Shown: positions 2,415 through 34,528, counted from the first letter of the stretch. The stretch is DNA of 64,000 bases from an uncultured Thermoplasmatales archaeon (GCA_964606745.1 CAZSHJ010000003.1:4806-68805), one strand, 5' to 3'. Notes: generated by a model from the sequence alone, not told the origin. Made by a program: numbers and translations.

Positions 2415-3515
2415 TCATGTCTCATATCCCTTCTCTGCAAGCTTTTCTGGCAAATAGGTGTCCGTCACATAATCCAGACCGTATTTTGCCAGGGCCTGTT
2501 GTTCGGACTTCTTCTTCATCTTGAGCTGCAGTTTTATCTCGCTTTCCCAGAATTCATCGTGAAAGCGGGGGTCCGAAAGCTCTGACTTCAGGGCGGATAT
2601 ATCTTCGTTGGTCAAATCGTCTGTTGGAAGTTCATAGTTGAGGATATCGGAGGGTGTAATCCCGAGAAATTCTGCCGAGGGCGTCGCGAGATACTCGGAT
2701 ATATGTGCAGTTTTTATCGCTCCGTAGGCAACCGATGCAAATATGCGGTATGACCACGGATCGCCGTCAGTAAATACAATCACCGGCAGATTTTTTTCCT
2801 CGTTAATCCTTTTTATGAATCTCCTTGTTGAGCGGGCGGGTTGCCCCTTGAGGTGGACAAGTATGGCATTCTTTTCCTCGTCGAATCCGTTTTCCACCAG
2901 CCGGTCGAACATACCGCCGGTTTCTATGGCAATTACGAGTTTTGCGTTTGTATCCCTGATTTTCAGTTTCTCCCTCTCCACATTGTACGGTATGGAATAG
3001 CCACTGTCGCCGACATCATCCTGGCAGTGTATTCTCCTTTTTTCTCCCTTTCTTGTTATCTCTTCTACGCTCAGGTCACCCATCACTCTTGCCCCGTCCT
3101 CCTCCGGCCTCAGGCCCATATCCTCCCTCAACTTCTTCGTAAGTATTTCAAGGTCTTCTGCCAGCCGGTCGGAGTCGCCCTGTGAAGAAAATTTTCCCTC
3201 GCTCCACCCTTCTGAGATATAGTACATTTCCCTCAAAGTCGATGACTTGTGCTGCTCTATCATCTTTTTGATAAAGTCTATGGTATAGACAGTGCGGAGG
3301 AGCATGTACGCCCCGGGCAGGGATACGGCCGAGCGGGTGGACTTATTTCTTCCATATTTCCAGACCCTGTGTCTCTCATCAAATGCGATATTTGATTTTG
3401 TTCTAGAGGGTATTTCAAGCTCGGGTATCCTTGAATTGTCGAGGTCGTCGTATATTTCCCCGGCTATTTTCATCATTTCCTTTACAGCGGCCCTCCTGCG
3501 TTCTTCCATTGTCAT
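2415..3515 (-). CDS. top6A: DNA topoisomerase VI subunit A (Spo11-like).
   Basis: 366 aa. A winged-helix region is followed by a Toprim block [21 protein letters not shown]. The gene lies immediately downstream of top6B with stop and start 1 bp apart. Confidence 0.9.
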
Positions 3516-3516
3516 T

Positions 3517-5385
3517 TTAACTTCCCTCCCATTTTTCCGCTCCTATAACATTCACTGGATCGATTCCCCTTATGTACAAACTATTCTCGTCAAAATCTCC
3601 CTTCTCCATTCCGAGCATATGGAATGATAGTTCTCTCTTCTCGGCAGGCTTCAATCCATCTATTTTCCACATTATATACCCTCTTTTTATCTCGTCTGCC
3701 GCGGGGTTCACTCCTCCCAGCAATCCTTCATCTGGAAGGGCGGCATACAGTTCGAAACTCTGAATCTTGTTTTTGTAGTTCGTGATTGAAATGGTGCTCA
3801 CTATCTTTCCTTCCACGTACTGTACTCCATCATCAATCCATACGATATTCATTATTTTTGTGATGACACCCTCTATGGACGGGACGGCTTTTTCAAGTAC
3901 CTCCGATGATTTTTTTGCAATTTCGGGCAAAATTTGTGATATGAGCATGAATTTATTCTTTGCCTTCACCTTCTTTTTCTTCTTTGAGAGGTGGCTTTTC
4001 ATTTTCCGGGCGCACTGCCGCAGGGACAATTGTATCTCCCTCTCTATTTCGTCGATATTGGCAATTGCTTCTTTTGATTCCGACGTGAAGGGTATGTTCA
4101 CCGACGAAATGTGGACAAGTATTATAGCGGGACCGAAAGGAATGCCCTTTCCACTCCGTTGCTGCAGGCCGTAGTGGCGCCAGTCCATATTTTTTATTCC
4201 CTTGGTTATTACGCAGTCGCCCTCCTGGTAAAGAAGTGGAACACGGTTTGCAAATCTGAAGATTTCAACCCTCTCCTCGGATGGCAGATTTCCGCCGTAG
4301 ACTATGCCGGTCTCGACAAGAAAAGGAATACCAGAGTGTACGCTCGGGTTTCTCTTGTCGGTAGAGATGAATTCTGGGGAGAGTGTGTCCATTTCCTTTC
4401 TCAATCCTCTCTTTATCAGGATTTCTCCTATCGGGGAGAGGCAATCTGTTGGGGGGCCCATCAATTTAACTTTTTTGAAGGCATTGGCAACTTTTTTTGC
4501 ATTCTCAAGGGAAATCTTATTCGGGTTGAACGATTGGTCAAGTTCCGCAATCTCTATTATTTTTTTTGCCTTCTGAATACTGATTGATGAGAACTCGCCT
4601 GAAAGAAACGAGGTAAGTTTTCTCGCTTTTGTCTCCTTTGCCATCTTTATGAGTGTCCCGAGTTCTATCCCGTACGGATGGGGTTTTATTTCCCTCGGCT
4701 GGGATGGTAATTTGTCTGTAACTCTTTCAAAAACGGTTTCATTCCCGTTCGGTTCGATGAACGTTATCTCGGCATGGGGATTCACTATGGCGGTACTTCT
4801 GAGGTATCCGTATGCTGACTGCTTCCTGTTCCTTACGTACATTCCCCCCATCGACAGCTCTATCCGTGTTCCGCTGTTTCTCTCCCAGTGTGTCATCTCA
4901 TCATGCAGTATCTCCGGGCGATTCTTCTTTGTATCTATAACAAGGGTGCATCGATGGGCAGGGAAACCCTCCCCGATTTTTGATGTTACCACAGTCGGCT
5001 TGCCGGTTGTAAGCTGAGAGTAAAGCACGGCCGCTGATATTCCTATTCCTTGCTGCCCTCTTGATTGTTTTAGACTATGAAATCGAGAGCCGTAAAGAAG
5101 GCGGGCAAAAACGTGGGGTATCTGTTTCCTTACTATTCCGGGGCCGTTATCTTCAACTATTATGAGATATTCATTGTCACTTGTTTCCCGTATTTCAACG
5201 AATATATCGGGCAGTATTCCCGCTTCTTCACATGCATCTAGGGCGTTATCAACAGCCTCCTTTACTGAAGTTATCAAAGCCCTGGTCGAGGTGCCGAAAC
5301 CCAGTATCTGTTTGTTTCGTTCAAAAAATTCTGCTACGGATATTTTTCTTTGATTTTTGGCAAGTCCCTCTGCTATAGAATGCAT
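3517..5385 (-). CDS. top6B: DNA topoisomerase VI subunit B (GHKL ATPase).
   Basis: 622 aa. Bergerat-fold motifs [12 protein letters not shown] and [10 protein letters not shown] are present. The gene forms an operon with top6A. Confidence 0.9.
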
Positions 5386-5420
5386 CCGTCGATATAACCA
5401 TACGATTTATAAAATATTTA

Positions 5421-6284
5421 CTACTCCGTAAGCCCCTCTGGTTGCTTGAATTTGCTGAAGGCATATGCCGCCTTTTCCACGTATTCACTGTTGCTCCTGA
5501 ACCACTTTTCCCATCCCTCGAGTTTTTCGTTAGCTTCCTTCAGTTCCTTGTTCAAATCCTCGTATACCTTGTATAATTTCGCCAGCCGTTCCTGTTCTTT
5601 TTTGTACAGTCCTTCTATTTCATCGTATTTTTTCTTGTATCCTACATAATCTTTCAGCGGCTCTAGATTCTCCACTTTCTTCCTCAGAATTTCCGCTTCT
5701 TTTTTGTAGGGCAAATATTTACTCAAATCCTCAACTTCCTTCTCCAGCCTCGCCTTTGTTGTCTTTTCCCTGTCCAGTTCCGTCTGCAACCTTCCTTTTT
5801 CTGACTTGTACTCCCTCAGTTCGCTCTCAAGATTCTCCACCTTCTTCCTATCCTCCTCAAGTTCTTTCAGAGTTTTAACTTTTTTCTCTAAATCTGCAGT
5901 TACATTCTCCTGCTCCGAGAGTTTCTTCTTCCATTCCTCTGCCTCCTTCTTTTCTTTTGATATGTCATCTTCCTGTTTTTTGTAGGCGTCCCATAACTTC
6001 TCGAGGCGAATCTGTTCCATCTCCAGTTCTTTTCTGTACTTTTCCATGTCGCTAAAAGCACTTATTGACCTTTCATCCGCATCTCTTGTCTTTTTCTCCA
6101 TCGAGTCAAGCATCTGGAACAGTCGTTCCATCCTGTTTACATCAATAAGACTCTTAACCTTTTCAAAAATCTCCTTTTCCTTGTAAGAGCCCTGAGCAAT
6201 AGAATCAATTTCTGATAAAATCTCTTTAAAGTTATCCTTTATTCTCTCTATATCCTTACCGTAAATAATACCCATATCTGCCAT
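5421..6284 (-). CDS. Lys/Glu-rich coiled-coil protein of unknown function.
   Basis: 287 aa with heptad-like K/E/L repeats throughout and no catalytic motif. Confidence 0.4.
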   Translation of the reverse strand: MADMGIIYGKDIERIKDNFKEILSEIDSIAQGSYKEKEIFEKVKSLIDVNRMERLFQMLDSMEKKTRDADERSISAFSDMEKYRKELEMEQIRLEKLWDAYKKQEDDISKEKKEAEEWKKKLSEQENVTADLEKKVKTLKELEEDRKKVENLESELREYKSEKGRLQTELDREKTTKARLEKEVEDLSKYLPYKKEAEILRKKVENLEPLKDYVGYKKKYDEIEGLYKKEQERLAKLYKVYEDLNKELKEANEKLEGWEKWFRSNSEYVEKAAYAFSKFKQPEGLTE

Positions 6285-6318
6285 TTTATCAGCACTTAAA
6301 GAATGATATTCTGCATAT

Positions 6319-7011
6319 TTAAAACTTCCTTAGCCATTTTTTTCTGTAAGCATCTTTTAGTGCCTTTCTGCCCAGCATGTAGGGCTGGACTGCCTTTTTT
6401 GTATAGTTATATATGAACAGCGAATAGATTGCCATTGCAGCCACAATATACACCGATGACCTGAAAAACATGGCAGGCCATACCGCAAGTCCCATCAAGG
6501 AGGCGACAAGAAGGTATTTCATTTTTTGCCTTTTTTTAATGCCTGTGCCTATCCACATGGCGGTTGAGCAACTTAGAAGTAAAACCGATATGGAAATTAC
6601 TGTTGCATAAAGGCCCTGCAGTGAAAGTAGTGATGATGTGCCCCTCAACAGTATCACTCCGAATGGGGACGCAAACCCAAGGCCGAGAGAGGCACCGTAC
6701 AGAATAACACCCTCTTCGTCTTGGAACTTCGGCAGGTTCAAAACAACAAGTTTTGACAGACTTTCGAAAAATGAAAATATGAATGAAACGATTAAAATGA
6801 TGTCTATTGCCTGCATCAGCAGGTCATAGTTGAACATCGTGAGGAACCAGATTTCCATGAAGTATACCAGCGTGCCCATTGCTATCCCTCCTATAAATGT
6901 CAGGAATATATAGTGTTCCTTGAATTTCCCCTCATACTCTCCGAGCGTCACATAGAGGATGAAAAGTGCAGGTATTATGCCAATCGGCAGCAAGGCCGAG
7001 CCAATATCCAT
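6319..7011 (-). CDS. Polytopic integral membrane protein. It could be a PrsW/CPBP-type intramembrane protease-like protein.
   Basis: 230 aa with ~7 hydrophobic helices. A GEYEGKF / ESLSK pattern weakly resembles PrsW motifs. Confidence 0.35.
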   Translation of the reverse strand: MDIGSALLPIGIIPALFILYVTLGEYEGKFKEHYIFLTFIGGIAMGTLVYFMEIWFLTMFNYDLLMQAIDIILIVSFIFSFFESLSKLVVLNLPKFQDEEGVILYGASLGLGFASPFGVILLRGTSSLLSLQGLYATVISISVLLLSCSTAMWIGTGIKKRQKMKYLLVASLMGLAVWPAMFFRSSVYIVAAMAIYSLFIYNYTKKAVQPYMLGRKALKDAYRKKWLRKF

Positions 7012-7096
7012 GGGAATGTAACATTCAGTGTTATTTAGTAATTTTTGGCGATTTGCTATGGTAAATTAAATAATACGAAATACATTACCATATACG

Positions 7097-7939
7097 ATGC
7101 ATGATAAAGAATTGATAAAGGATTTGCAGAGAAAAGCTCTTCTTATAAGGAAGTATGTTGTCGATTCCGTTTATAGGGCGGGCTCGGGCCACCCCGGCGG
7201 AAGTCTGTCAATAGCAGATATACTGGCATGTCTTTATTTTCATGAGATGGGGCATGACCCGAAAAATCCCAGATGGCCGGACAGAGACAGATTTGTATTA
7301 TCCAAGGGTCATGCCTCACCTGCTTTATATGCTGCACTTGCCATGGCGGGATATTTCTCTGTTGATGAGCTGAAGAATCTGCGAAAAACGGGACATTTCT
7401 TGCAGGGTCATCCTTGCATGAAGAAGGTTCCGGGGGTGGATATGTCCACCGGCTCATTGGGTCAGGGGCTCAGTGCAGGTATTGGAATGGCAATTGCAAG
7501 CAAACTGGACAAGAAGGATTACAGAGTCTTCGTTTTAATGGGAGACGGGGAGATAGAGGAAGGACAGATATGGGAAGCCGCTGCTTCCGCATCTCATCAC
7601 TCACTGGACAACATTATAGCAATTCTGGACAGAAACGGATTGCAGATAGACGGCCATACGGAAGAAATACTCAATCTTGAACCGCTTAAGTGGCGGTGGA
7701 GGGCATTCGGGTGGGATGTGATAGAAATAGACGGGCACAACATCGAGGAAATACTTGATGCTCTTCACGAGGCGGATAAAAACGATAAACCAACCCTTAT
7801 AATTGCATATACCATAAAGGGCAAGGGTGTCTCGTTTATGGAGGGGAGTTTATCCTTTCATGGAAAACCGCCCTCCGACGAGCAGTATGTAAAAGCCATG
7901 AGCGAACTAAATCAGGCAGAGGAGGAATTAAATGGTTAG
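7097..7939 (+). CDS. Transketolase, N-terminal (TPP-binding) subunit.
   Basis: 280 aa with GHPGGSLS, the GDGEIEEGQ TPP motif and the SLDNIIAILDRNG block. This is the archaeal split transketolase arrangement. Confidence 0.9.
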   Translation: MHDKELIKDLQRKALLIRKYVVDSVYRAGSGHPGGSLSIADILACLYFHEMGHDPKNPRWPDRDRFVLSKGHASPALYAALAMAGYFSVDELKNLRKTGHFLQGHPCMKKVPGVDMSTGSLGQGLSAGIGMAIASKLDKKDYRVFVLMGDGEIEEGQIWEAAASASHHSLDNIIAILDRNGLQIDGHTEEILNLEPLKWRWRAFGWDVIEIDGHNIEEILDALHEADKNDKPTLIIAYTIKGKGVSFMEGSLSFHGKPPSDEQYVKAMSELNQAEEELNG

Positions 7940-8891
7940 CGCGAAAATTACGGACAAGATGAGAAATTTGAGGGACGGTTATAGTTCCGCATTGATAAAG
8001 CTCGGCTACGAAAATGAGAATGTGGTTGTGCTTGATGCAGATTTAGCCCTTTCTACAAAAACGAAGCGATTCGGCACCATCTTTTCCGAACGATTTTTTG
8101 ACTGCGGTATCTCCGAGGCAAACATGATGGGTATGGCCGCAGGCCTTGCGACATGCGGGAAAATAGCGTTTGCATCCTCCTTTGCGGTCTTTGCAACGGG
8201 GCGGTGTTATGACCAGATAAGGCAGTCGGTAGCATATCCCGAGTTGAATGTGAAAATCGTGGCGACGCATGCAGGTATATCCGTGGGCGGCGACGGGGCG
8301 AGCCACCAGATGCTTGAGGACATGGCATTGATGCGTGCCCTGCCGAACATGCGAGTTATCGCTCCGGCGGATGCAATAGAGGTTGAGGACGTTGTACCCG
8401 CCATCGCATCTTATCCTGGGCCTTTTTACGTTCGCATGGGGCGAGCCAATGCTCCTGTACTTTTCAGAAGGCATACAAAATTTAAGGTGGGAAAGGCAAA
8501 ACTGCTGAGGAACGGAGATGACATCACAATAATATCAACCGGGACGATGACCGCCGAGGCATTGAGAGCATACGGGTTACTGAAGGAGGAAGGCATCGGT
8601 GCAAGGGTAGTCCACATGCCGACGGTGAAGCCCGTGGACAGGAGGGCAGTGATGAAAGCGGCTGACGATACGGGACTCATAATTACCTGCGAGGAACATT
8701 CGGTAATCGGCGGGCTGGGAGGCGCTGTCTCGAGAGCGATGAGCGAGGACCCTGTGCCCATGACAAGAATAGGCATAAATGACACGTTCGGCGAATCCGG
8801 GGAGGCGGCCGAGCTGGTGAGAAAGTACGGTATGACGGCGGACAACATAGCGGGGACTGCAAAGAAAATGATAAAGGAAAAGAAGGGTTAG
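7932..8891 (+). CDS. Transketolase, C-terminal (pyrimidine-binding) subunit.
   Basis: 319 aa. It overlaps the N-terminal subunit by 8 bp. FGESG and a transketolase C-terminal domain are present. Confidence 0.9.
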   Translation: MVSAKITDKMRNLRDGYSSALIKLGYENENVVVLDADLALSTKTKRFGTIFSERFFDCGISEANMMGMAAGLATCGKIAFASSFAVFATGRCYDQIRQSVAYPELNVKIVATHAGISVGGDGASHQMLEDMALMRALPNMRVIAPADAIEVEDVVPAIASYPGPFYVRMGRANAPVLFRRHTKFKVGKAKLLRNGDDITIISTGTMTAEALRAYGLLKEEGIGARVVHMPTVKPVDRRAVMKAADDTGLIITCEEHSVIGGLGGAVSRAMSEDPVPMTRIGINDTFGESGEAAELVRKYGMTADNIAGTAKKMIKEKKG

Positions 8892-9027
8892 AGATTGAAT
8901 ATTTCTGATATTATTCCTTTCCCAAATATTTGAACAAGCCAGTCAAATATTTTTTCAATATATGTCCCTATCGCCTCTAAACACATCATATATTGTGGGT
9001 TTAAAAGAAAAAGGAATAGATAAAATC

Positions 9028-10920
9028 CTAGGGGTAGCCACCGATTTTCAGGCTTGGGTCTCCAAGCAAACACCATTCCTCTATTGTTTTCCCATCCTTT
9101 TTATCTGTCATCGGAAACTCTGTAAGATAATACGATATCGCTGCTCCATGAGTCTCTCCGAGAATATCCTTTTCTTCTTCTGTATATAACCTAAAAAATT
9201 CGATATCAATTCTATATCCATAATACTCTATACAATCAGGTATTCCATTTCCATTGGCGTCCCCCGTTCTAGCTGGACCATAAGATGTGCATCCTATGGT
9301 TGCTATTGCTCCACCATCAATTTTACGAGTCAGCCACCAACTGAAACACTCGGGACCGAAGGAAGCATGATTGATTATAGCTGATAAGTTTTCAAAGTCA
9401 AGTAGGTTAAGTAAACTAATATCAAACTTGCTATTACTACAACCACCAATCAAGCAAATTGGATACATATCCTTGTTCTTAAAAAGCATAAATTGAGCTT
9501 CATCGATTCCGATCCACACACTCTCATCCAGAGGAGGATGTGTTGCCCAGCTCATCGGGTTGCCGTGTCCCTCAAAATCCAAAAATCCGCATCCTTCGCT
9601 AACTGCATCAATAATATCTTTGCCCTCAGTCAAAGTGTTATCAGATGTAAAGAGTGTTGAAATTTCAAATCCAACATCTTTAAGATAATCTGCGGCTGCC
9701 AATACGGCAAGTTCTCCGTCATAATATTGGTCACCTGCAAACGAATCTCCTCCTATCCCAACGTATTTCTTAGACCAACTTTCTCCATATGCAGTTGTCT
9801 CATAGGTTATTATTTTCTCGACCATGATATCTACTTCAAATTTATTTCTACATGCCAACCTGCCTACATACACATCAGGATACCAATCAAGGACATCTTT
9901 CCCACCAAAACGCCATTCTCCAAAAATGCCGTTGCCGTTACTATCCCAATCTTCAAATACAATATTTCCATCGTCATACTTATAGATATCAGAGAAATAA
10001 AGATCGCTGAGGAAAAATTTGTCACCATCATTAACATCTAAATAAGAATATCTTACTGGACACCACCATTTGAACTCTTTGACGCCACCATGTCTTCCAC
10101 CGACAAGTAACACGTATTTTATTCCCCACTGTTCTACAGCGTCTTTAATGAAATATTTTACCTTCTCGGCATCATCTCTTCCATTCACCGTGAAATAAGT
10201 GCCTCCGTAAATCTCGCTCAAGGTAACCAACTTTGTTGCAACCCCATAGGTTTCCTTATGATTGACTAAAGGCTGCAAAGCATCACTGAACTCAGATGGG
10301 GCAACAATGAGTAAATCATAGACATCATTCTGCAATAACGGCTTTTCTGAAGGTTCATATGTTACCTTTATTTCCATTTTATTAGTATACATCAATTCAT
10401 TTGATGCAGGGATATATCTGCAAGGAAATGCCTGTATAGAAAGGAAAATGTTATGCCCGTCACTATCCCTTCCAGCCCCAATATTGTATGAGATCCAGTC
10501 TAAAGGATAAAGCTCGGTGCTCTGGTATACTGTTCCTTCTGTTATTTTTGTGTCAGCATTTTCCATATTATGGGAAATCGGCTTGGGTGCTGGTTGTATC
10601 TTTCTATCTAACTGCATTGTGTGGATTTCTGATGTCGTTACCTCCACGTTTTCAATTTTTGTTCCAAAGGGAAATGTCATAACCTCTGTTTTATAAGGCA
10701 ATATCGGAAAGTCTTCATTCATTAGGTAGGCCATATCACTTTCAATAAGTGTGTACTCTTGATTTTCTTTTATTTTTGGTGGTGAAAAATTAATTGAAAA
10801 AACATTTGTTTCGTTATGTTTTCCTTTGGCATCTTCCAAAACAGGTGCATTTATTCCTGCAAGCGTTGATGTTCCTAAGAGCATCACGACAATCACAACC
10901 ACTATTCCCAATTTTTTCAT
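9028..10920 (-). CDS. Secreted clan-CD cysteine peptidase-like protein (C25/gingipain-like), paralog 1.
   Basis: 630 aa with a signal peptide. A His-Gly block FEGHGNP and a Cys block ICLIGGCSNS fit the clan CD dyad. Blocks EKVKYFIKDAVEQWGIKYVLLVGG, DWDSNGNGIF...YPDVYVGRLACRN and the C-terminal LLGDPSLKIGGYP are shared with the 26140..28737 paralog. Confidence 0.6.
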   Translation of the reverse strand: MKKLGIVVVIVVMLLGTSTLAGINAPVLEDAKGKHNETNVFSINFSPPKIKENQEYTLIESDMAYLMNEDFPILPYKTEVMTFPFGTKIENVEVTTSEIHTMQLDRKIQPAPKPISHNMENADTKITEGTVYQSTELYPLDWISYNIGAGRDSDGHNIFLSIQAFPCRYIPASNELMYTNKMEIKVTYEPSEKPLLQNDVYDLLIVAPSEFSDALQPLVNHKETYGVATKLVTLSEIYGGTYFTVNGRDDAEKVKYFIKDAVEQWGIKYVLLVGGRHGGVKEFKWWCPVRYSYLDVNDGDKFFLSDLYFSDIYKYDDGNIVFEDWDSNGNGIFGEWRFGGKDVLDWYPDVYVGRLACRNKFEVDIMVEKIITYETTAYGESWSKKYVGIGGDSFAGDQYYDGELAVLAAADYLKDVGFEISTLFTSDNTLTEGKDIIDAVSEGCGFLDFEGHGNPMSWATHPPLDESVWIGIDEAQFMLFKNKDMYPICLIGGCSNSKFDISLLNLLDFENLSAIINHASFGPECFSWWLTRKIDGGAIATIGCTSYGPARTGDANGNGIPDCIEYYGYRIDIEFFRLYTEEEKDILGETHGAAISYYLTEFPMTDKKDGKTIEEWCLLGDPSLKIGGYP

Positions 10921-10938
10921 TTTATTTCACCTCTTTTT

Positions 10939-12315
10939 TTACTTTCCTACAGGTACAACAAACATTGGATCAAAATCATCATCTAGCCCAAGTATGGATA
11001 GGACGGATTCATCGTCTGTCACAGGAAACACATTTGCGGAAAGACCGCATGCTGTTGTTTCTAATAACACGTTATGGGCTGATGACCCTGCTTCAAAATG
11101 CCATACCCATCGTATACTTTCATCCGAAAAGTCATCATGCCATTCTGGTCTTGTGTGATCTATATCCAACACAGAAACGATGGTAAGAGGGGCAGAACTA
11201 ACAGATAAATCAGATGCTTGAGCAATTTCATCTCTCATGTCCCCGTTTGCAACTTTCATCATAAAAGTCATTATTGGAATTCCAAAAAAGTCAACAGGGG
11301 CACTCTTGAGTAACCAATTTATGCTGGTTAGAAGATTAGGGTAGTATCTATAAATGCCAGATTCTGTAATTGCATATATATCAAATGGATAATAACCATG
11401 CCCGCTCGGGACAGTTCGGTGTCTTTTCACCGTATTTGACGAACCACTCTTATCAAGGTAATACGAGAATCCATAGGACGACCAGATTAATTGACTTATC
11501 TCCTGCTCTGTTAACTCACCAGCAAACGATGTCCCCTCGTTTCTTTCTTCTAATGCAGTCGTTAAAGATATATCTGATGCCTCAACTCGTGGAAGCAATG
11601 AAATCCACTGTGGCTTATAGTCAAAATTATATGGGTGTTCTGGGTGACCAAGAGGCATAACAATCTTCCCTTTTTCAGTAGAGGGGACACCCATCTTTCT
11701 ATCTATGGGCGATGTCGGTACCTCTGCTGTAACCACCACCCCTAAATCAATGGCATTCGCCGAGAACTGAATATTCTGATACATCGCCCCGATTTGAGCG
11801 CATCCAATGTTTTCATCGCTCTTGGTTTTATTCCAGACAAGAGCCAATTGGATAGGTGCCTTATATTGCCATCCAACCCCGTCCCTGTAATCTCCTTCCA
11901 TATAAAAAACAAGTGAATGGTTCAATGCATCATATTTGTATACTGTATCCTCTTTTAGAACATAAATCTCTATTGCATAGTTGCCACCAATGTCGTAAAT
12001 AGTTCGTTTTCCATCATCTCTGTATCCACATGCAGACCATAGAATCGTAGATAATTCTTCGTCGGTTACAGGCTCATCGGTAAACTCTCTTACCGACATT
12101 CTCCTGAAAATAGCCTCTTCAAGAGGCATATCAATCGTAAGTGGTGGAGGAAGCATATAGTCCTGTAAAGCAAAGCCTTCTTTTTCTCCACTCATAAAAA
12201 TTGAAGAATTATGTAATCCCATTGTTGGCATGATGGCAAGACTAAAAAAAACTGCTATAACTCCAACAACCAACCTTTTTTTCCATATCGTCTTTCCCAT
12301 TTTTTGCCTCCGCAA
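10939..12315 (-). CDS. Membrane-anchored protein with two nitroreductase/SagB-type dehydrogenase-like domains.
   Basis: 458 aa. An N-terminal hydrophobic anchor is followed by two repeats of the nitroreductase signature: RRMSVREF...LSTILWSACGY + GCAQIGAMYQNIQFSANAIDLG, and LTEQEISQLIWSSYGFSY + GSSAHNVLLETTACGLSANV. It lies 18 bp upstream of the peptidase, in the same orientation. Confidence 0.5.
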   Translation of the reverse strand: MRRQKMGKTIWKKRLVVGVIAVFFSLAIMPTMGLHNSSIFMSGEKEGFALQDYMLPPPLTIDMPLEEAIFRRMSVREFTDEPVTDEELSTILWSACGYRDDGKRTIYDIGGNYAIEIYVLKEDTVYKYDALNHSLVFYMEGDYRDGVGWQYKAPIQLALVWNKTKSDENIGCAQIGAMYQNIQFSANAIDLGVVVTAEVPTSPIDRKMGVPSTEKGKIVMPLGHPEHPYNFDYKPQWISLLPRVEASDISLTTALEERNEGTSFAGELTEQEISQLIWSSYGFSYYLDKSGSSNTVKRHRTVPSGHGYYPFDIYAITESGIYRYYPNLLTSINWLLKSAPVDFFGIPIMTFMMKVANGDMRDEIAQASDLSVSSAPLTIVSVLDIDHTRPEWHDDFSDESIRWVWHFEAGSSAHNVLLETTACGLSANVFPVTDDESVLSILGLDDDFDPMFVVPVGK

Positions 12316-12457
12316 GTATATAATAAAAGTTTATACAAAAACTTTTCTATTGCTTGACGGCGTCATGTTAACATATGAAAGCATATGGAATATTTTGGTG
12401 GATTCGGCAAGTTAAGTCATCGATAAAAACCCCTATATATGCCAATTTTATTGCCAA

Positions 12458-13348
12458 GTGGAGAAAATGAAAATATTTATCGATACGGCAGATTTGAATG
12501 AGATAAAGGAGGCGTATTCATGGGGCGTCGTTGACGGCGTGACGACCAATCCGTCCCTGATAAAAAAGGCGGTTGACGGACTGAAGGTAAGGGGAGAGGT
12601 GGTCACAATGGAGGAATACATAAAAGGAATATGCATTGCCGTCGATGGTCCGGTGAGCCTTGAAGTCAAGGGGGTAAAAGCCGGGGAAATCATAAAAGAA
12701 GCCGAGACACTTTACAAAAAATTCAATTCGGTGAACGGTAATGTCGTAATCAAGGTTCCGGTAAATACTGCAATGTCTGAGGGAGATGGGAATTTCGAGG
12801 GCATAAAGGCAATAAAGCATCTTGAGGGCAAGGGCATTCCTACAAATGCAACGCTTGTAATGTCGGCGGAGCAGGCGCTGATGGCGGCGAAGGCGGGAGC
12901 AAGTTATGCAAGCCCATTTCTAGGCAGGATAGACGATTATATCCGAAAAAATCTGGGCATAGAATTTGGAAAGAGTGATTATCACGGCACCGGGGTAATG
13001 AAAAAAATTGAAACGGCAGAGGCGGTGGAACTGCTGGGGATTAGAGACCCTGCCGATATATATCGTAAATTGTGCGATGCCGAGCTTGGCGACAGTGGGG
13101 TGCACAGCGGTGTGGAGTTTGCAGAGATCATCATGAAAATATACAGGGCTTACAATTTCGGGACAAAGGTTATTGCAGCAAGCATAAGAAATGCCCGTCA
13201 GGTGAGGGAGGTGGCAGAACTGGGTGTAGATATTGCAACAATACCCTTCGGCGTAATAAAGGAGATGATGTCTCACTACAAGACAGTGGAGGGGATGAAG
13301 AAGTTTACAAATGATGTTGTCCCCGAATACAGGGCATTGTTTGAATAG
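12458..13348 (+). CDS. tal: Transaldolase (TalC/FSA-type) carrying a ~55-aa insertion.
   Basis: MKIFIDTADLNEIKEAYSWGVVDGVTTNPSLI and the catalytic-Lys region are present. The protein is 296 aa versus ~215 for a typical short transaldolase. Confidence 0.85.
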   Translation: MEKMKIFIDTADLNEIKEAYSWGVVDGVTTNPSLIKKAVDGLKVRGEVVTMEEYIKGICIAVDGPVSLEVKGVKAGEIIKEAETLYKKFNSVNGNVVIKVPVNTAMSEGDGNFEGIKAIKHLEGKGIPTNATLVMSAEQALMAAKAGASYASPFLGRIDDYIRKNLGIEFGKSDYHGTGVMKKIETAEAVELLGIRDPADIYRKLCDAELGDSGVHSGVEFAEIIMKIYRAYNFGTKVIAASIRNARQVREVAELGVDIATIPFGVIKEMMSHYKTVEGMKKFTNDVVPEYRALFE

Positions 13349-13375: not shown

Positions 13376-14197
13376 ATGTATTCTGAGAATAGCAATGCAT
13401 ATTTACCTCTCTCTTATTCTTCTATCATGCCCCTGCGTATTTGCATTATTGACAAAATAGTCAATAACACCTCGATTCACAAGACATTTTATTTTGAGGA
13501 TAGGGAATGCAGGAAGGCAAATCCCGGGCAATTTGTGATGGTCTGGGTGCCCGGAGTGGACGAAATGCCGATGTCCCTCTCTTGCATACGGGAAAGGCAG
13601 GCTGTCACTGTTGAGGTGAAGGGAGAGGGAACAAAAAGTATGCATGAAATGGAAGAAGGGGATAAAATAGGCATAAGTGGTCCGTATGGAAAAGGCTTTT
13701 TCATTCGTGGGAACAAACCCCTGTTTATTGCAGGTGGTACCGGCATCGCTCCTTTATTTCCTTTGGTAGAAGCGGCAAATAGTGGGGGAACAGTCATTAT
13801 GGGGGCCCGCACTGCTTCTCTCTTACTTTTTGAGAAAGAACTGAAAAACATGGATGTAGATTTATATATATCAACGGATGACGGCTCGAAAGGACGCAGG
13901 GGATTTGCCACGGATATACTTGAAGAAATGGTCGGTGAGGGATTCGACATGGTCTATACATGTGGACCGGAAATAATGATGAAGAAGGTGCTTGACTTAT
14001 GTATGAAAAACAGCGTCCCCATGCAGGCAAGCCTTGAGAGATATATGAAATGTGGAATCGGTATATGCGGTTCATGTGCAATCGACGGCTATCATGTCTG
14101 CAGGGACGGTCCCGTCTTTGAGGGCAACATTCTGTCAAAAATGGATGATTTCGGAAAATGGAAGAGAGACGAGGCAGGAAAGCAGGTGAGTATATAG
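13376..14197 (+). CDS. PyrK-like FAD/NAD-binding oxidoreductase with a C-terminal 2Fe-2S cluster (dihydroorotate dehydrogenase electron-transfer subunit family). The true start is probably near 13427.
   Basis: PGQFVMVWVPG, GGTGIAP and a C-terminal CGIGICGSCAIDGYHVC cysteine cluster are present. No adjacent pyrD was found. Confidence 0.7.
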   Translation: MYSENSNAYLPLSYSSIMPLRICIIDKIVNNTSIHKTFYFEDRECRKANPGQFVMVWVPGVDEMPMSLSCIRERQAVTVEVKGEGTKSMHEMEEGDKIGISGPYGKGFFIRGNKPLFIAGGTGIAPLFPLVEAANSGGTVIMGARTASLLLFEKELKNMDVDLYISTDDGSKGRRGFATDILEEMVGEGFDMVYTCGPEIMMKKVLDLCMKNSVPMQASLERYMKCGIGICGSCAIDGYHVCRDGPVFEGNILSKMDDFGKWKRDEAGKQVSI

Positions 14198-22606: not shown

Positions 22607-23020
22607 TTACATAAACTTCCTTTTGATCCAGGTCCTATCAAAATCTCTGTCATTTGAATAAATCGTGCTTATATTCATCCTTTTCATAACAGCTAATGAA
22701 ATGCAGTCATTGAAATCGATTTTATACTTTTTTACAAATTCAGATGCCGCTATAAAGTCTCTCATATCTAAGGGTATTATCTCCAGGTGGAATATTGAGG
22801 ATATTAGTTTTATTTCTTCTTCTATCTCTTCTGACCTTTTATGTTTTTCAAGCCACCAACATACTTCTGCAAGATTTATTTGAGAGGTTACTGCTTTCTC
22901 TCCACTATCAATTCTCTCCAGTATTATTTTTGATACCTCTCCAAACTCAGGGTGTCCCTGGATGGCATAAATGAAGACATTGGTATCTACAAATCTTCTT
23001 CTATTCTTTTCTTCATCCAT
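22607..23020 (-). CDS. vapC: PIN-domain ribonuclease, a VapC-type toxin.
   Basis: FVDTNVFIYAI plus conserved acidic residues including SNDRDFD. Confidence 0.75.
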   Translation of the reverse strand: MDEEKNRRRFVDTNVFIYAIQGHPEFGEVSKIILERIDSGEKAVTSQINLAEVCWWLEKHKRSEEIEEEIKLISSIFHLEIIPLDMRDFIAASEFVKKYKIDFNDCISLAVMKRMNISTIYSNDRDFDRTWIKRKFM

Positions 23021-23235
23021 TCTCTGGCCTCTCTTTTTGGATTTTTCTCTGGCTTTACTTTTACGCTTCCATACAATTTTTCCACAGGTTTTTCTACCAT
23101 ATCCTTGGATCTTATTACCAGTTTTTTATCATCTATCGAGATCAATATCTTTTCTCCCTCCCCTATTTTCAGTATCTTTCTCATTTTCTTGGGGATGACA
23201 ACTCTCCCGCCCACCGATACTTTCATTTCTTCCAT
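22987..23235 (-). CDS. vapB: AbrB/SpoVT-family antitoxin (VapB). The start is trimmed to the MEEMKVS methionine.
   Basis: A swapped-hairpin motif VSVGGRVVIPKKMRKILKIGEGEKILI lies just upstream of vapC and overlaps it. Confidence 0.6.
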   Translation of the reverse strand: MEEMKVSVGGRVVIPKKMRKILKIGEGEKILISIDDKKLVIRSKDMVEKPVEKLYGSVKVKPEKNPKREAREWMKKRIEEDL

Positions 23236-23351
23236 TTTCCCACAAAATACATGTAGTTTTGGTATATAATATTTGTCATTAAATATTATCCATAGAGATT
23301 TTGTCAAATAAAAGATGGTACAATTCTCTTGTCAACTAGTTATTAATAGCA

Positions 23352-26139: not shown

Positions 26140-28737
26140 CTACGGATATCCGCCTATTCTCAAGCTCGGGTCGCCCAGCAGAATCCACTGCTGCACGGCT
26201 TTTTCATCTATGGAATCCCATCCCAAGTCGGGGAACCACCAGCATTCGGGCAGTGTAAAGGACTTGAAGTGGCTGATGTAGCTGGTCTGGGTCTGGGCGT
26301 ATGCGGTACCCAGCATGTCATATTCATGCTCGCCGTACTGGCGGAAGAACTCCGAGGTAATCCAACCGTCTCCTGCCCCAACCGTACAGAACTCTCCTTC
26401 CCAGCCCCAGCCGAAGCCCGTGTTGCCCATGGATGCAATAGCTCCCGTTTCGGGCATCTTCACAATATACCAACTCCAGCATTCAGGTGTGGGCTGACCG
26501 TAGGTGTGCATGTAGATATTTTTACCGAAGAAGAGCAGGAAGAAGATATCCAGTACTGAGGGAACCAGTGACACGTTGAACAGGCTGTTGTGACAGCCAC
26601 CCACTACCACCACCGGATATTTACCCGTATTGGCCAGCTGCTTCATGGGAAATGCCGGAAATTGTATCCAGGGGAAGAATGGGGAAACCTGGGAAACTGT
26701 AAGGCCGTCCACCGAACCGTACTGTCGGTTGCCGGGTATGCCGGGATATTGGTCGCCCCAATACCCAGGGCTGCCGTGCCCGGAGAAAAAGGCGAAACCG
26801 TGACCCTGGCTGAAGGCCTCGATGATGTCAGTCTGACCGGTAAATCGGCCGTTGGATGTCCATACAATCTCCTGTTCAAACCGCTCCGGCATGTAGTAGA
26901 GGGCTCCTCCTCGACCGTGCAGGGACTTGGCACCGGTGACCCATTCGCCTTCATAATAGACCTCGGTGTGGTTGCGGTAGTCGTTGAACATCACCTCCCC
27001 GTTGCTGTTTTCTATCCACAGGTGTACGTCCGTGACGTTGCCGTAGGGCTGCGGGTCATAAGACTTGCCTCTGATGTGCAACACGCCGTCCATGTAAGAA
27101 ACGTTTGCCCACCAGAAAAGAGTGTTGCAGTACGCCTCGCTCTCGCTGGGGGTGTACGAATAGTCATCGCTGCCCAGGACATCGCCATCAGATATAGATA
27201 CGATTTCAGTAATAGGTGGGGCCGGATACCCATCTTGCAGGGCAGGATTGAGATGGTCGTCGTGGTTGAAATGCAGTTCGGTGTCGGCACCCCGGTCAAG
27301 GTCAACGTTAACCACGTCAGCTGGGCCAGTGTCGCCATCGTCGTTGGTGCTCTGGGCGTAAATGGTGTATTGTCCGTCGGGAAGACCCGTGGTGTCCCAT
27401 TGGAAGTCCATGTCATGCTGGTCAAGAAACCCGTCGCCGGACGCCACCATGACGCTCTCAAACCAGTCGGCATTGTAGGTAGTGGTCTCGTAAGTGATAA
27501 TCTTATTCACCACGTCCTTAACCTCCTGGACGTTCCGGCAGGCCAGCCGGCCCACGGCTACATCCGGGTATAGGTCTGTAACATCCTCCGGGGCACCTGT
27601 CTCGTCGGTCCATTCGGCAAAGATGCCGTTGCCGTTGCTGTCCCAGTCCTCAAATGCACCCCCTGTCTTGTAGATGTCGGCGTAATACAAGTCGCAGGGA
27701 TAACCGGGCTCTCCGGACACCAGATTTGAATATCTTACGGGTACGTGCCATCCCTGAACTCCGCAGTTGGCATTGTCACGGGGCTTGGCATACAACAAGG
27801 ACTTGAGTCCGCCGGCTAGGATAACGTATTTAATGCCCCAAGACTCGATGGCGTCTTTGATGAAATATTTAATTTTCTCTGGCTCATCCACACCGTCATA
27901 CTGGGCGTAGATGTCCTCGGTGGTTTGGAGAAGGGTTGTAATGCCCATGCTGGTCTTGTGGTCCGCCAGCCACTGCAGTTCGGAGGAAAAGATTTGAGGG
28001 GCAATTATCACCAGGTCGTAGGCGCCGGCACGGGTAAGAGTGACGGCGGGTGAATCGTAAGTGATATGCATATCAGCACCGTCGGCCACATACAGCAGGT
28101 TATCTCCCGGTATATAGCGGACGGGGTAGAGGTTAACGGTTACGTAGGTGACATGCTCCATCTCTCCGTTCAGTCCGCAGCCCACGTTGTAACTGTACCA
28201 TGCGGCGGGGAACGGCTGATGGCTGTTATATAGTGAAATATCTTTTCCGGGCGGCGCGTACCCTTCAATGGGGGATAGGGGCATGGGTGCCGGAGCAGGG
28301 AGAACCTGATCCTGAACGGACTGCTCGTGTATACCGCGTGGTTCCACGGCCACTCTGACATTGCGTACTCCGAAGGGCAGTTGGAAGGTCTGTACCGTGC
28401 GGGGAAGCAGGGGCTTGCCAGGGTTAAGGAGGTAGTCTGTTCCATCACACTCCAGCCGGATATATCCGTCCGTACCTCTGGTGGAGGTAACTGATGAAAA
28501 ATCAATGGTTGCAGTGCGGGGGGCATACATGCCAGACGGCGATGTGCGGTAATCCGTCCCGTGGTTCACGGAAACAGCGGCTGCCCCCAGCCCACCCAAA
28601 ACAATCATGTACACAACGGCAATAGCGAGTATTTTTTTCATAATATCACATGCATATATCGGCTGCTGACTATTAAAAATTTTGTTGGTTGATAATTGAA
28701 AGGCATTATTGGGAAAACTCAATTTTAGAATTGTCAA
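26140..28737 (-). CDS. Secreted clan-CD (C25/gingipain-like) peptidase-like protein, paralog 2. GC-rich, with a ~230-aa Ig-like insertion.
   Basis: 865 aa with a signal peptide. SGHGSPGYWG and VVVGGCHNS His/Cys blocks are present. Blocks EKIKYFIKDAIESWGIKYVILAGG, DWDSNGNGIFAEW...YPDVAVGRLACRN and the C-terminal LLGDPSLRIGGYP are shared with paralog 1. GC is markedly higher than in its neighbours. Confidence 0.6.
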   Translation of the reverse strand: MTILKLSFPNNAFQLSTNKIFNSQQPIYACDIMKKILAIAVVYMIVLGGLGAAAVSVNHGTDYRTSPSGMYAPRTATIDFSSVTSTRGTDGYIRLECDGTDYLLNPGKPLLPRTVQTFQLPFGVRNVRVAVEPRGIHEQSVQDQVLPAPAPMPLSPIEGYAPPGKDISLYNSHQPFPAAWYSYNVGCGLNGEMEHVTYVTVNLYPVRYIPGDNLLYVADGADMHITYDSPAVTLTRAGAYDLVIIAPQIFSSELQWLADHKTSMGITTLLQTTEDIYAQYDGVDEPEKIKYFIKDAIESWGIKYVILAGGLKSLLYAKPRDNANCGVQGWHVPVRYSNLVSGEPGYPCDLYYADIYKTGGAFEDWDSNGNGIFAEWTDETGAPEDVTDLYPDVAVGRLACRNVQEVKDVVNKIITYETTTYNADWFESVMVASGDGFLDQHDMDFQWDTTGLPDGQYTIYAQSTNDDGDTGPADVVNVDLDRGADTELHFNHDDHLNPALQDGYPAPPITEIVSISDGDVLGSDDYSYTPSESEAYCNTLFWWANVSYMDGVLHIRGKSYDPQPYGNVTDVHLWIENSNGEVMFNDYRNHTEVYYEGEWVTGAKSLHGRGGALYYMPERFEQEIVWTSNGRFTGQTDIIEAFSQGHGFAFFSGHGSPGYWGDQYPGIPGNRQYGSVDGLTVSQVSPFFPWIQFPAFPMKQLANTGKYPVVVVGGCHNSLFNVSLVPSVLDIFFLLFFGKNIYMHTYGQPTPECWSWYIVKMPETGAIASMGNTGFGWGWEGEFCTVGAGDGWITSEFFRQYGEHEYDMLGTAYAQTQTSYISHFKSFTLPECWWFPDLGWDSIDEKAVQQWILLGDPSLRIGGYP

Positions 28738-34455: not shown

Positions 34456-34528
34456 GGGCCCGTGGGGTAGCTTGGCATCCTTCCAGCTTGGGGTGCTGGT
34501 AACCCGAGTTCAAATCTCGGCGGGCCCA
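34456..34528 (+). tRNA. tRNA-Pro(GGG).
   Basis: 73 nt. Acceptor stem GGGCCCG/CGGGCCC is followed by discriminator A. Anticodon stem CCAGC/GCTGG has loop TTGGGGT (anticodon GGG, G37). T-arm CCGAG-TTCAAAT-CTCGG. Confidence 0.8.

Follow-up and report, generated by a model that had tools for sequence, protein, structure and literature searches.

A lineage-specific insertion between archaeal transketolase and transaldolase genes encodes a C25 peptidase and a tandem nitroreductase-fold protein, both with predicted export signals

The analysis of a 64,000-nucleotide stretch of archaeal DNA (hereafter, the window) revealed that the conserved tktN-tktC-tal-pyrK cluster is interrupted by a lineage-specific insertion (about 3.5 kb), consisting of two minus-strand genes that encode a C25 cysteine peptidase and a tandem nitroreductase-fold protein, here called NTR2. 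In the reading that we favor, with a confidence somewhat better than even, both products are exported and would be accessory members of an extracellular protein-degradation gene set, and not components of a RiPP/azoline system. The host is a Thermoplasmata archaeon of sediment type, resembling MBG-D/Thermoprofundales, and the locus is otherwise ordinary, being an accessory two-gene insert within a housekeeping cluster.

The left flank of the insertion is a split transketolase (7097-8891, plus strand), composed of tktN (7097-7939, with a Pfam Transketolase_N match) and tktC (7932-8891, with Transket_pyr and Transketolase_C), and the right flank is the transaldolase gene tal (12458-13348, plus strand; TAL_FSA, E = 1.4e-54), next to a pyrK-like gene (13376-14197). 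Since the database call of tal (P0121) has 293 aa, its start is placed at ATG 12467, 9 nt downstream of 12458. The original prediction, that a minus-strand two-gene unit had been inserted between tktC and tal, was borne out by comparison with two relatives (loci L055 and L057), whose tkt-tal loci lack the insert. Both keep the gene order that flanks it in the window (topoVI A/B, a 287/291-aa gene, a 230-aa gene, tktN, tktC, tal, pyrK, and NUDIX), with tktC and tal overlapping or separated by 46 nt, and for this reason the insertion is considered lineage-specific. The tktN-tktC flank is syntenic with both loci, at 76-78% nucleotide identity. In blastn alignments, positions 534-6994 of L055 correspond to 2421-8878 of the window and positions 6995-7879 to 12461-13348, while the alignment of L057 ends at 6944 (window 8887) and resumes at 7003 (window 12422). 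Breakpoints are thus located at 8878/8887 on the left and 12461/12422 on the right, and the inserted segment spans 8892-12421.

A mobile element or genomic island was considered and found no support, since no direct or inverted repeats were found flanking the insert, no tRNA is located at it (the sole tRNA of the window is at 34456-34528), integrase and transposase domains are absent among the genes of the window, and the base composition is not deviant, the insert being within one SD of the gene mean (43.1 ± 5.7% GC). In this regard, the description of the unit as lower in GC holds only against the GC-rich tkt and tal genes, the insert having 38.8% GC and the window 41.9%. As a separate observation, the tal-pyrK junction of relatives likewise collects unrelated secreted-protein genes.

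All predicted ORFs were recovered at their original coordinates, and the spacer between the NTR2 and peptidase genes is, as anticipated, exactly 18 nt (10921-10938, minus strand). Within this spacer, GAGGTG precedes the start codon (ATG) of the peptidase gene by 8-9 nt, which suggests co-transcription and coupled translation of both genes. Furthermore, no terminator-like site was seen between them on the minus strand, and a TATA-like element and GGAGG precede the ATG at 12300. The NTR2 and C25 peptidase genes form a probable operon, set off from the flanking genes by 136 and 157 nt.

The second gene of the unit (9028-10920, minus strand) encodes a 630-aa protein which, as judged by Pfam matches and its hydrophobic N-terminus, is a secreted C25 (gingipain-like) cysteine peptidase with a predicted His452/Cys494 dyad, in agreement with the secreted clan-CD peptidase initially proposed. 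Peptidase_C25 (PF01364) is matched over profile positions 2-373 of 374 (E = 7e-51; 174 bits vs a cut-off of 23), and Propeptide_C25 at E = 1e-6 (28.4 bits vs a cut-off of 22). The predicted layout comprises a signal peptide, a propeptide (residues about 66-198), and a catalytic domain (204-625), with residues 1-28 as the only hydrophobic segment. The protein also matches the gingipain R structures 4ief and 1cvr, whose "YTGHGSE" aligns with the FEGHGNP motif containing the predicted catalytic His452 (codon 9565-9567, minus strand), presumably the counterpart of the catalytic His211 of RgpB. The predicted catalytic Cys494 (codon 9439-9441, minus strand; motif IGGCSNS, inside the Pfam C25 match) was assigned by its spacing, 42 residues after His452, rather than by structural alignment. 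C25 peptidases are known from Thermoprofundales, where they are reported as abundant, expressed, and partly plasmid-borne (PMC6461988; PMC9585477).

NTR2 is encoded at 10939-12300 (to 12315 with a TTG start) on the minus strand, and would have 453 aa from ATG 12300 or 458 aa from TTG 12315; the ATG is the likelier start, because it is the one used in the database gene call (P0001) and has GGAGG 8 nt upstream. The prediction of a hydrophobic N-terminus followed by two nitroreductase/SagB-like domains was corroborated by PF00881, a structural model, and hhalign. The PF00881 Nitroreductase profile matched two stretches (E = 1.2e-24; 87.8 bits, above the curated cut-off of 23.5), and the AlphaFold2 model (pLDDT 89, pTM 0.85) predicts an alpha+beta nitroreductase fold arranged as a dimer-like unit of two domains, both of which place NTR2 in the PF00881 superfamily. 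In Foldseek searches, the top match was the tandem nitroreductase 3eo7 (E = 1.7e-18), followed by 3hoi and 8cqs (target TM-score 0.82), and the best 50 of the 151 PDB matches at E ≤ 0.001 were all nitroreductase-fold proteins. On sequence comparison, the two halves of NTR2 are homologous and represent an internal duplication, with domain 1 aligning to domain 2 in hhalign with a probability of 98.9% (E = 3e-17, 24% identity). The family comprises 481 homologs, every named one from Thermoplasmata, and more than 120 loci with identities of 37-69%. The homologs listed maintain 50-69% identity across the archaeal class, their 55 invariant columns cluster in the composite site described below, and one homolog bears the NCBI name "SagB/ThcOx family dehydrogenase".

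The two domains of NTR2 differ in their putative cofactor-binding elements. Domain 1 (11608-12168, minus strand; residues about 50-236 in the 458-aa numbering) presents the motif R72-x-S74-x-R76, a predicted FMN-phosphate site in which R72 and R76 are conserved in 40/40 members and S74 in 39/40. This motif aligns with "ERQSTREY" of BT_0217 (8cqs) and with BF3017 (3hoi; E = 2e-24), and is kept by most of 25 distant tandem relatives. In domain 2 (10942-11607, minus strand; residues 237-458), the counterpart is degenerate (R258-x-E260-x-T262), whereas the loop R298-H-x-T-x-P303-S304-A/G-H306-G-Y-Y-P310 (HRTxPSAHGYYP) is invariant at R298, H299, P303, S304, H306, G307, Y308, Y309, and P310, the equivalent loop of domain 1 being variable. 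The same asymmetry is repeated in the 25 distant tandem cluster representatives. From these patterns, only one of the two possible interface sites looks intact, a composite FMN site formed by the RxSxR of domain 1 and the HRTxPSAHGYYP loop of domain 2, and we infer that NTR2 binds FMN.

Regarding its location, NTR2 begins with a predicted signal peptide or signal anchor (12220-12300, minus strand), recognized from a helix in the model and from hydrophobicity and charge. It consists of a basic n-region, about 17 hydrophobic residues, and then P-x-x-G; in the model, residues 6-32 are predicted as a helix and residues 33-48 as a disordered linker. One N-terminal hydrophobic 17-mer is present in 40/40 aligned members (mean Kyte-Doolittle value of 2.43), with a net charge of +2.85 in the n-region and -1.0 after the hydrophobic segment, and no second hydrophobic segment was found in these 40 sequences. 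Moreover, fusions to PKD, Big_13, beta-helix/NosD, dockerin, P_proprotein, or LRR plus Ig plus Por_Secre_tail (T9SS tail) domains occur among the distant tandem members. Single-domain bacterial relatives of the BF3017/BT_0217 type (e.g., P0359) have classical Sec signal peptides, and the crystallized BF3017 chain starts just after the position matching the predicted cleavage site. The conserved signal or anchor, the fusions to extracellular domains, and the Sec signals of single-domain relatives strongly support an extracytoplasmic globular part. In this context, the proposal of an extracytoplasmic flavoenzyme-like protein was sustained as to location. Such a protein had been regarded as unusual, and this part of the proposal has to be qualified, since NTR2 belongs to a large, uncharacterized family of exported nitroreductase-fold proteins that includes two solved Bacteroides structures.

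Gene neighborhoods were compared for 87 dereplicated NTR2 loci, counting catalytic-domain matches to C25, M14, C11, C10, or S12. Peptidases represented 9.6% of NTR2 neighbors at ±1, 7.4% at ±2, and 2.2% at ±3 or beyond, with an enrichment of adjacent peptidases (Fisher odds ratio 4.7, p = 2.4e-4) that was also evident for ±1-2 vs ±3 or beyond (odds ratio 4.1, p = 1.3e-4). A peptidase gene occupied ±1 in 14/87 loci, in 12 of the 14 on the same strand as NTR2, with gaps ≤278 nt; five M14 cases at ±1 share synteny and are therefore dependent on one another. In a cruder first analysis (45 loci, domain-linked supercluster), enrichment was not significant (odds ratio 1.5, p = 0.17), and the peptidase association of NTR2 is best described as modest. 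The specific NTR2-C25 pairing is unconserved. Indeed, among the eight nearest relatives (about 53-60% identity) only one locus (L064) has a C25 gene downstream of NTR2, and the nearest C25 gene, with 88.6% nucleotide identity, occurs in another genome without NTR2. Neighborhoods were highly variable among loci, and in those checked no cytochrome, quinone-linked, or electron-transfer genes recurred beside NTR2, nor was a partner able to supply its reducing power found.

The initial suggestion that the pair resembles azol(in)e-peptide maturation systems did not hold up. According to this suggestion, the pair would be a remnant or variant of a TOMM-type system, with a SagB-type dehydrogenase and a leader peptidase, as could be argued from the TIGR03605 (SagB-type) match of 60.4 bits, the recovery of ThcOx, BmdC, and McbC by Foldseek (E = 1e-7 to 1e-9), and the NCBI name of one homolog. 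However, the TIGR03605 score is below the cut-off of 78.4 and no YcaO is encoded in 64 kb, which leaves the azoline-maturation reading unsupported; of the 57 called genes of the window, none encodes a YcaO, TfuA, or cyclodehydratase, and such genes are also absent next to NTR2 homologs in neighborhoods with Pfam families checked. The absence of a nearby precursor, already noticed in the original prediction, was confirmed as well. No Cys/Ser/Thr-rich precursor gene was found near the unit, where the sole small ORFs, of 62 and 61 aa, overlap the NTR2 and peptidase genes and are not Cys/Ser/Thr-rich, and there is no room for one, because the flanking spacers have only 136 and 157 nt. In addition, both proteins are predicted to be exported, whereas RiPP maturation is cytoplasmic, and the family of the neighboring peptidase changes among C25, M14, S12, and C11. 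A maturation role is, on this evidence, scarcely credible. It is also very unlikely that NTR2 adopts the opposite topology (N-terminus out, C-terminus in) and works as a membrane-tethered cytoplasmic NAD(P)H-dependent nitroreductase, since the positive-inside rule, applied to the charges given above, favors export of the globular part, homologs occur as fusions with modules that are obligately extracellular, such as a T9SS sorting tail and a dockerin, and the Sec signal peptides of single-domain bacterial relatives are cleavable.

It is possible, albeit unlikely, that adjacency to the peptidase is incidental and arises merely from the clustering of secreted-protein genes in flexible genome regions. 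NTR2 would then be an exported redox protein unrelated to proteolysis, for example one that reduces or detoxifies quinones, humics, or nitro compounds outside the cell, or one that takes part in a route of extracellular electron transfer. The highly variable neighborhoods, the 73/87 loci without a peptidase at ±1, the lack of enrichment over local background in the first analysis, and the gathering of unrelated secreted-protein genes at the tal-pyrK junction of relatives are in line with this explanation, as is the treatment of BT_0217, the closest solved relative, as a putative nitroreductase in Bacteroides thetaiotaomicron (PMC13171619). Nevertheless, peptidase genes decay significantly with distance from NTR2, same-strand and short-gap arrangements occur with four different peptidase families, and genes for cytochromes, quinone-linked functions, or electron transfer do not recur. 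Sequence conservation, for its part, makes it improbable that NTR2 retains only the fold and is non-enzymatic, either as a cofactor-less protein or as an exported flavin-binding one (flavin scavenger/receptor, or structural): identity remains at 50-69% among the homologs listed, the invariant columns are concentrated in the composite site, and RxSxR is kept as in BF3017 and BT_0217, which are FMN-dependent according to their depositors. A non-enzymatic role would be compatible with the clear degeneration of one of the two sites, with the failure to find a partner for reducing power, and with the fact that non-covalent flavoproteins do not usually take a Sec-type export route.

In the preferred reading, that of accessory members of the extracellular protein-degradation gene set that such archaea typically have, a Sec-type signal peptide or anchor would leave the globular part of NTR2 outside the membrane, where two SagB/BF3017-like nitroreductase-fold domains in one chain would form a pseudo-dimer. 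NTR2 would act as a one-site extracytoplasmic flavoenzyme and would dehydrogenate or reduce an organic substrate outside the cell, for which a peptide or amino-acid derivative is the most plausible candidate. The C25 peptidase would be secreted as a zymogen with its propeptide, and NTR2 may cooperate with peptidases. Sec-type export of a non-covalent flavoprotein implies that cofactor loading outside the cell would be needed, and neither a donor nor an acceptor of electrons outside the cell is evident for NTR2. More speculatively, and with considerable doubt, the NTR2 family and BF3017-like proteins could constitute an unrecognized class of Sec-exported extracellular flavoenzymes that, in sediment Thermoplasmata, aid secreted peptidases of several clans acting on detrital peptides; residues would be modified outside the cell (for instance dehydrogenated or dehalogenated, or reduced where damaged), leading to degradation by peptidases or uptake of the products. 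Few protein degraders of anoxic sediments are as abundant as MBG-D/Thermoprofundales-type archaea, whose extracellular enzymes govern part of organic-carbon burial. If our reading is true, a conserved, exported, one-site NTR2 that tends to lie near secreted peptidases would bring redox chemistry into a process so far described as purely hydrolytic, and would raise the puzzle of how a Sec-exported protein gains and recycles a non-covalent flavin extracellularly, a puzzle that applies equally to BF3017 and BT_0217.

Compared with known systems, the peptidase resembles gingipain R (RgpB; 1cvr, 4ief) and the C25 peptidases of Thermoprofundales in having a C25 domain with propeptide, a GHG motif, and a signal peptide. 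It resembles RgpB only very remotely (E = 1e-6 across about 120 residues), and Ig, adhesin, and T9SS domains are absent from its C-terminus. As for NTR2, its branch of the nitroreductase fold also includes the azoline dehydrogenases SagB, McbC, ThcOx, and BmdC and the AlbA-type cyclodipeptide oxidases (Foldseek E = 1e-7 to 1e-9), and we take the "R-T-x-P-S-A-...-Y-P" loop and "G-x-Y-x-Y-...-H-x-L" to be motifs common to them and NTR2. These FMN enzymes act by dehydrogenating peptides instead of using NAD(P)H, a chemistry that suits an extracellular site best. In contrast to NTR2, they function in the cytoplasm together with YcaO cyclodehydratases, NRPS modules, or AlbB, partners that the NTR2 locus lacks. 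The putative tandem nitroreductase Ava_2154 of Anabaena variabilis (3eo7) provides the best structural match over the whole chain (500 aligned columns) and likewise has two nitroreductase-like domains per chain, but identity is only 15%, with a TM-score of 0.55-0.59 and an rmsd of 11.7 Å. The best PDB sequence matches to NTR2 domain 1 are BF3017 of Bacteroides fragilis (3hoi, E = 2e-24) and BT_0217 of B. thetaiotaomicron (8cqs, E = 2e-23), two single-domain structures described as "FMN-dependent nitroreductase", with 27-28% identity, a target TM-score of 0.82, and an rmsd of about 2.4 Å. Both share the N-terminal motif "LPxP...R-x-S-x-R-E-F/Y" with domain 1 only. NTR2 fits the informal grouping of BF3017/BT_0217-like exported proteins by its N-terminal export signal and domain-1 similarity, although BF3017 and BT_0217 are bacterial, whereas all named NTR2 homologs are from Thermoplasmata. 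Finally, BF3017 and BT_0217 have about 200 aa and are presumably homodimers with two equal sites, whereas NTR2 would be a fused pseudo-dimer in which one site is degenerate.

An ORF map combined with Pfam scans recovered every gene named in the original prediction. The transketolase genes tktN (7097-7939, + strand) and tktC (7932-8891, +) are followed by a Peptidase_C25 gene of 630 aa (9028-10920, - strand; Peptidase_C25 E = 7e-51, plus Propeptide_C25), a nitroreductase-like ORF of 458 aa, here called NTR2 (10939-12315, -; PF00881 Nitroreductase in two stretches, E = 1.2e-24), the transaldolase gene tal (12458-13348, +) and a PyrK-like gene (13376-14197). The gap between NTR2 and the peptidase gene is exactly 18 nt, as had been described. 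For NTR2, ATG 12300 is a more plausible start codon than that of the 458-aa version, whose residue numbers are kept here; ATG 12300 is the gene call in the database protein P0001 (453 aa), with GGAGG 8 nt upstream of it and an A/T-rich TATA-like element farther upstream. Since the spacer also carries GAGGTG 8-9 nt ahead of the peptidase ATG, no terminator-like site was found between the two genes, and a T-rich stretch lies after the stop codon of the peptidase gene, NTR2 and the peptidase gene look like a single operon transcribed from a promoter of its own, divergently from tal.

Contigs of relatives were chosen via transaldolase homologs and compared by gene order and blastn. In L055 (GCA_034660695.1) and L057, whose tal products are 75% and 77% identical, the order of the window is kept (topoVI-A, topoVI-B, a 287/291-aa gene, a 230-aa gene, tktN, tktC, tal, pyrK, NUDIX), but tktC runs 4 nt into tal in L055 and ends 46 nt short of it in L057. 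Nucleotide similarity to L055/L057 is collinear up to window position 8878/8887 and picks up again at 12461/12422. Therefore, about 3.5 kb (8892-12421) is extra DNA in the window lineage, and the minus-strand two-gene unit does split tkt from tal; moreover, neither tkt nor tal was found nearby in about 120 other NTR2 loci. A mobile-element origin of the insert was considered and set aside, since flanking repeats, a tRNA and an integrase were looked for and none was found, and its GC content does not deviate. Indeed, the unit had been called lower in GC, which holds only beside the GC-rich tkt and tal genes, whereas its 38.8% lies within 1 SD of the window genes (43.1 +/- 5.7%). The tal-pyrK junction is variable in relatives too, with two additional genes in L055 (7885-10052; one of 336 aa, the other DUF3108-like) and a Big_7 protein in a further contig, L056 (8045-8854); thus the tkt-tal-pyrK cluster as a whole seems to receive small genes repeatedly, most of them encoding secreted proteins.

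The peptidase had been proposed to be secreted and of clan CD, and its features agree with this: one N-terminal hydrophobic segment ('MKKLGIVVVIVVMLLGTSTLAG'), a C25 propeptide and a complete C25 catalytic domain (Pfam), with His452 ('EGHGNP') aligned to the 'TGHGSE' motif of gingipain R and Cys494 ('GGCSNS') 42 residues after it. Extracellular gingipain-like peptidases have been described in MBG-D/Thermoprofundales, where they are expressed and partly plasmid-borne (PMC6461988; PMC9585477), and the window enzyme is an ordinary member of this known kind. An obligate pairing of NTR2 and C25 is contradicted by the contig L058 (GCA_975956935.1), which carries a copy of the window C25 gene (88.6% nucleotide identity) and has no NTR2 gene beside it; similarity is limited to window 9003-10933, stopping in the 18-nt spacer, 13 nt upstream of the peptidase ATG. 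The C25 gene appears to move as a lone gene, and among the close relatives examined the NTR2-C25 arrangement is repeated in L064 only. In L058 the copy, with its gene-sized homology, and a tandem paralog, matched at 74.7% in its N-terminal part, occupy 3009-4904 and 5644-7431 with an ICMT-like gene between them, an arrangement suggesting that single C25 genes duplicate and relocate. The window itself holds a second, larger C25 peptidase with a propeptide (26140-28737, -, 865 aa), followed by a PKD-domain protein (28998-29681); the GC content of this second C25 gene (54.0%) is at the top of the window genes (mean 43.1%), and it may have been recently acquired.

NTR2 is, on the sequence evidence, an exported protein. 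One N-terminal hydrophobic 17-mer (mean Kyte-Doolittle 2.43) is present in 40/40 aligned members, and further hydrophobic segments, sought in the same members, were absent. Net charge averages +2.85 in the n-region and -1.0 in the stretch after the 17-mer, which by the positive-inside rule would place the globular part outside the membrane. P-x-x-G typically terminates the h-region, consistent with the -3/-1 signal-peptidase pattern, and the N terminus would be either a cleaved signal or an anchor. Twin-arginine (Tat) export was rejected, as RR occurs in just a few members and most n-regions are of the Sec-like KK/KR type. Additional support for export comes from relatives recovered when 1.84 billion cluster representatives were searched with a profile (5233 hits): among the tandem members, more distant ones have fusions to PKD, Big_13, beta-helix/NosD, dockerin or P_proprotein domains, or to LRR and Ig domains with a T9SS Por_Secre_tail, and bacterial relatives with a single domain (200-240 aa) have typical Sec signal peptides. 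In one of the latter (P0359), residue 23 aligns to chain residue 5 of BF3017 from Bacteroides fragilis (PDB 3hoi), so the crystallised protein begins where the mature protein would. An extracytoplasmic flavoenzyme-like protein had been expected to be unusual; the location is supported, but NTR2 is not a one-off, and extracytoplasmic nitroreductase-fold proteins form a large, essentially unstudied family. The literature searched yielded no informative account of these Bacteroides structures or of a nitroreductase in Thermoprofundales; BT_0217 of B. thetaiotaomicron (PDB 8cqs) features there only within a set of nine putative nitroreductases that were deleted jointly (PMC13171619).

The two nitroreductase-like domains were confirmed by PF00881 matching twice, by the predicted fold and by homology between the halves (hhalign probability 98.9%, 24% identity). 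The AlphaFold2 model (pLDDT 89, pTM 0.85) comprises a helix (6-32), a disordered linker (33-48) and a compact two-domain body. Foldseek against the PDB gave the tandem putative nitroreductase 3eo7 as top whole-chain match (E = 1.7e-18), BF3017 and BT_0217 as matches to domain 1 (27-28% identity, target TM-score 0.82), and ThcOx, BmdC, McbC and cyclodipeptide oxidases at E = 1e-7 to 1e-9; a profile-based sequence search of the PDB returned the same top matches. In homodimeric nitroreductases of the NfsB type, each FMN is gripped between an N-terminal R-x-S-x-R/K motif from one subunit and the 'PS...' loop from its partner. NTR2 domain 1 retains R72 (40/40), S74 (39/40) and R76 (40/40), which correspond in domain 2 to R258, E260 and T262. 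Conversely, the domain-2 loop R298-H299-x-T-x-P303-S304-A-H306-G307-Y308-Y309-P310 is invariant in the 40 aligned members, and its domain-1 counterpart is variable and lacks 'PS'. This asymmetry recurs in 25 distant tandem representatives. We infer a single FMN site built from the domain-1 motif and the domain-2 loop; the second site would be dead.

NTR2 is conserved across Thermoplasmata. Among the best 120 of 481 word-indexed homologs, all of the same length, every organism-named one belongs to a Thermoplasmata/Thermoplasmatota MAG and the closest is 69% identical; genome and metagenome scans gave 49 and 72 loci, respectively, at 36-61% identity. A 1.7-kb contig (L007, JAUVXD010000035.1) assigned to a MAG with the label Acholeplasmataceae bacterium has a typical Thermoplasmata NTR2 gene (61% identity), which probably reflects misbinning rather than a bacterial occurrence. 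In some genomes (L011, 19086-20741; L032, 19597-21165) the main copy has a second, more divergent paralog (about 520-550 aa, 283-292 bits) no farther than 10 kb away.

The genes around NTR2 differ greatly from locus to locus. A first neighbourhood test on 45 loci, using a blastp single-linkage 'supercluster', detected no enrichment near NTR2 (odds ratio 1.5, p = 0.17); since this cluster mixed families via shared PKD/Ig domains, it was replaced by catalytic-domain-only phmmer queries of limited sensitivity (C25, M14, C11, C10, S12) on 87 dereplicated loci. Full-length peptidase queries, whose accessory domains inflated counts, were left unused. Peptidases made up 9.6% of neighbours at +/-1, 7.4% at +/-2 and 2.2% at +/-3 or beyond, an enrichment with odds ratio 4.7 (p = 2.4e-4) over farther genes of the same loci, although the five M14 cases share synteny, which limits the independence of the counts. 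For C25 alone, +/-1-2 versus +/-3 or beyond gave an odds ratio of 3.4 (p = 0.006), and 12/14 of the +/-1 peptidases are on the same strand as NTR2, with gaps <= 278 nt. These data indicate a modest association that is not specific to C25 but extends to secreted peptidases generally, across four catalytic types. Of the partners seen, the one that recurs most consistently is an M14 carboxypeptidase with CarboxypepD_reg and PKD domains (609-613 aa), 78-111 nt upstream of NTR2 on the same strand in one subclade (L001, L019, L020, L080, L085). A PF00144 beta-lactamase/S12-type gene lies at window 56967-58352, and the family is also found directly downstream of NTR2 in L012 and L049.

Other genes of the window include an 1802-aa, very large secreted or surface protein (49253-54661, -) with 8 PKD and 7 beta-helix/NosD matches, and a PIN-domain toxin with a MazE/AbrB-type antitoxin (22607-23307, -). 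Just downstream of the sole tRNA gene in the window (tRNA-Pro, 34456-34528), a HamA-domain protein (PF08878, E = 1e-47) directly followed by an 852-aa DEAD/ResIII helicase (34845-38329, +) looks like a Hachiman-type defence pair.

In brief, the two genes form an accessory operon, both of whose products are exported, in a Thermoplasmata genome rich in secreted-protein genes; the observation and the insertion of the original prediction stand, but its interpretation was only partly right. Because of the fold branch, the location and the modest neighbourhood signal, our best guess is that NTR2 would act next to peptidases outside the cell, catalysing an FMN-dependent redox reaction on substrates derived from peptides. 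The resemblance to azol(in)e-peptide maturation, in which a SagB-type dehydrogenase and a peptidase would mature peptides, does not hold. The lack of a nearby YcaO had been correctly noted: a Pfam scan of all 57 called genes revealed none in the 64-kb window, and no TfuA, cyclodehydratase, lanthipeptide enzyme or radical-SAM maturase beside the unit, the window's only radical-SAM protein being ELP3-like (47289-48917). Furthermore, NTR2 scores 60.4 bits against TIGR03605 (SagB), under the 78.4-bit cut-off, the bordering spacers are of 136 and 157 nt, where the sole small ORFs overlap the two genes, and both proteins are predicted to be exported. NTR2 is therefore related to these maturation systems by a shared fold, not a shared system, and shows the nitroreductase/SagB-like fold in a new architecture: fused, with one predicted site, and bearing a putative signal or anchor.
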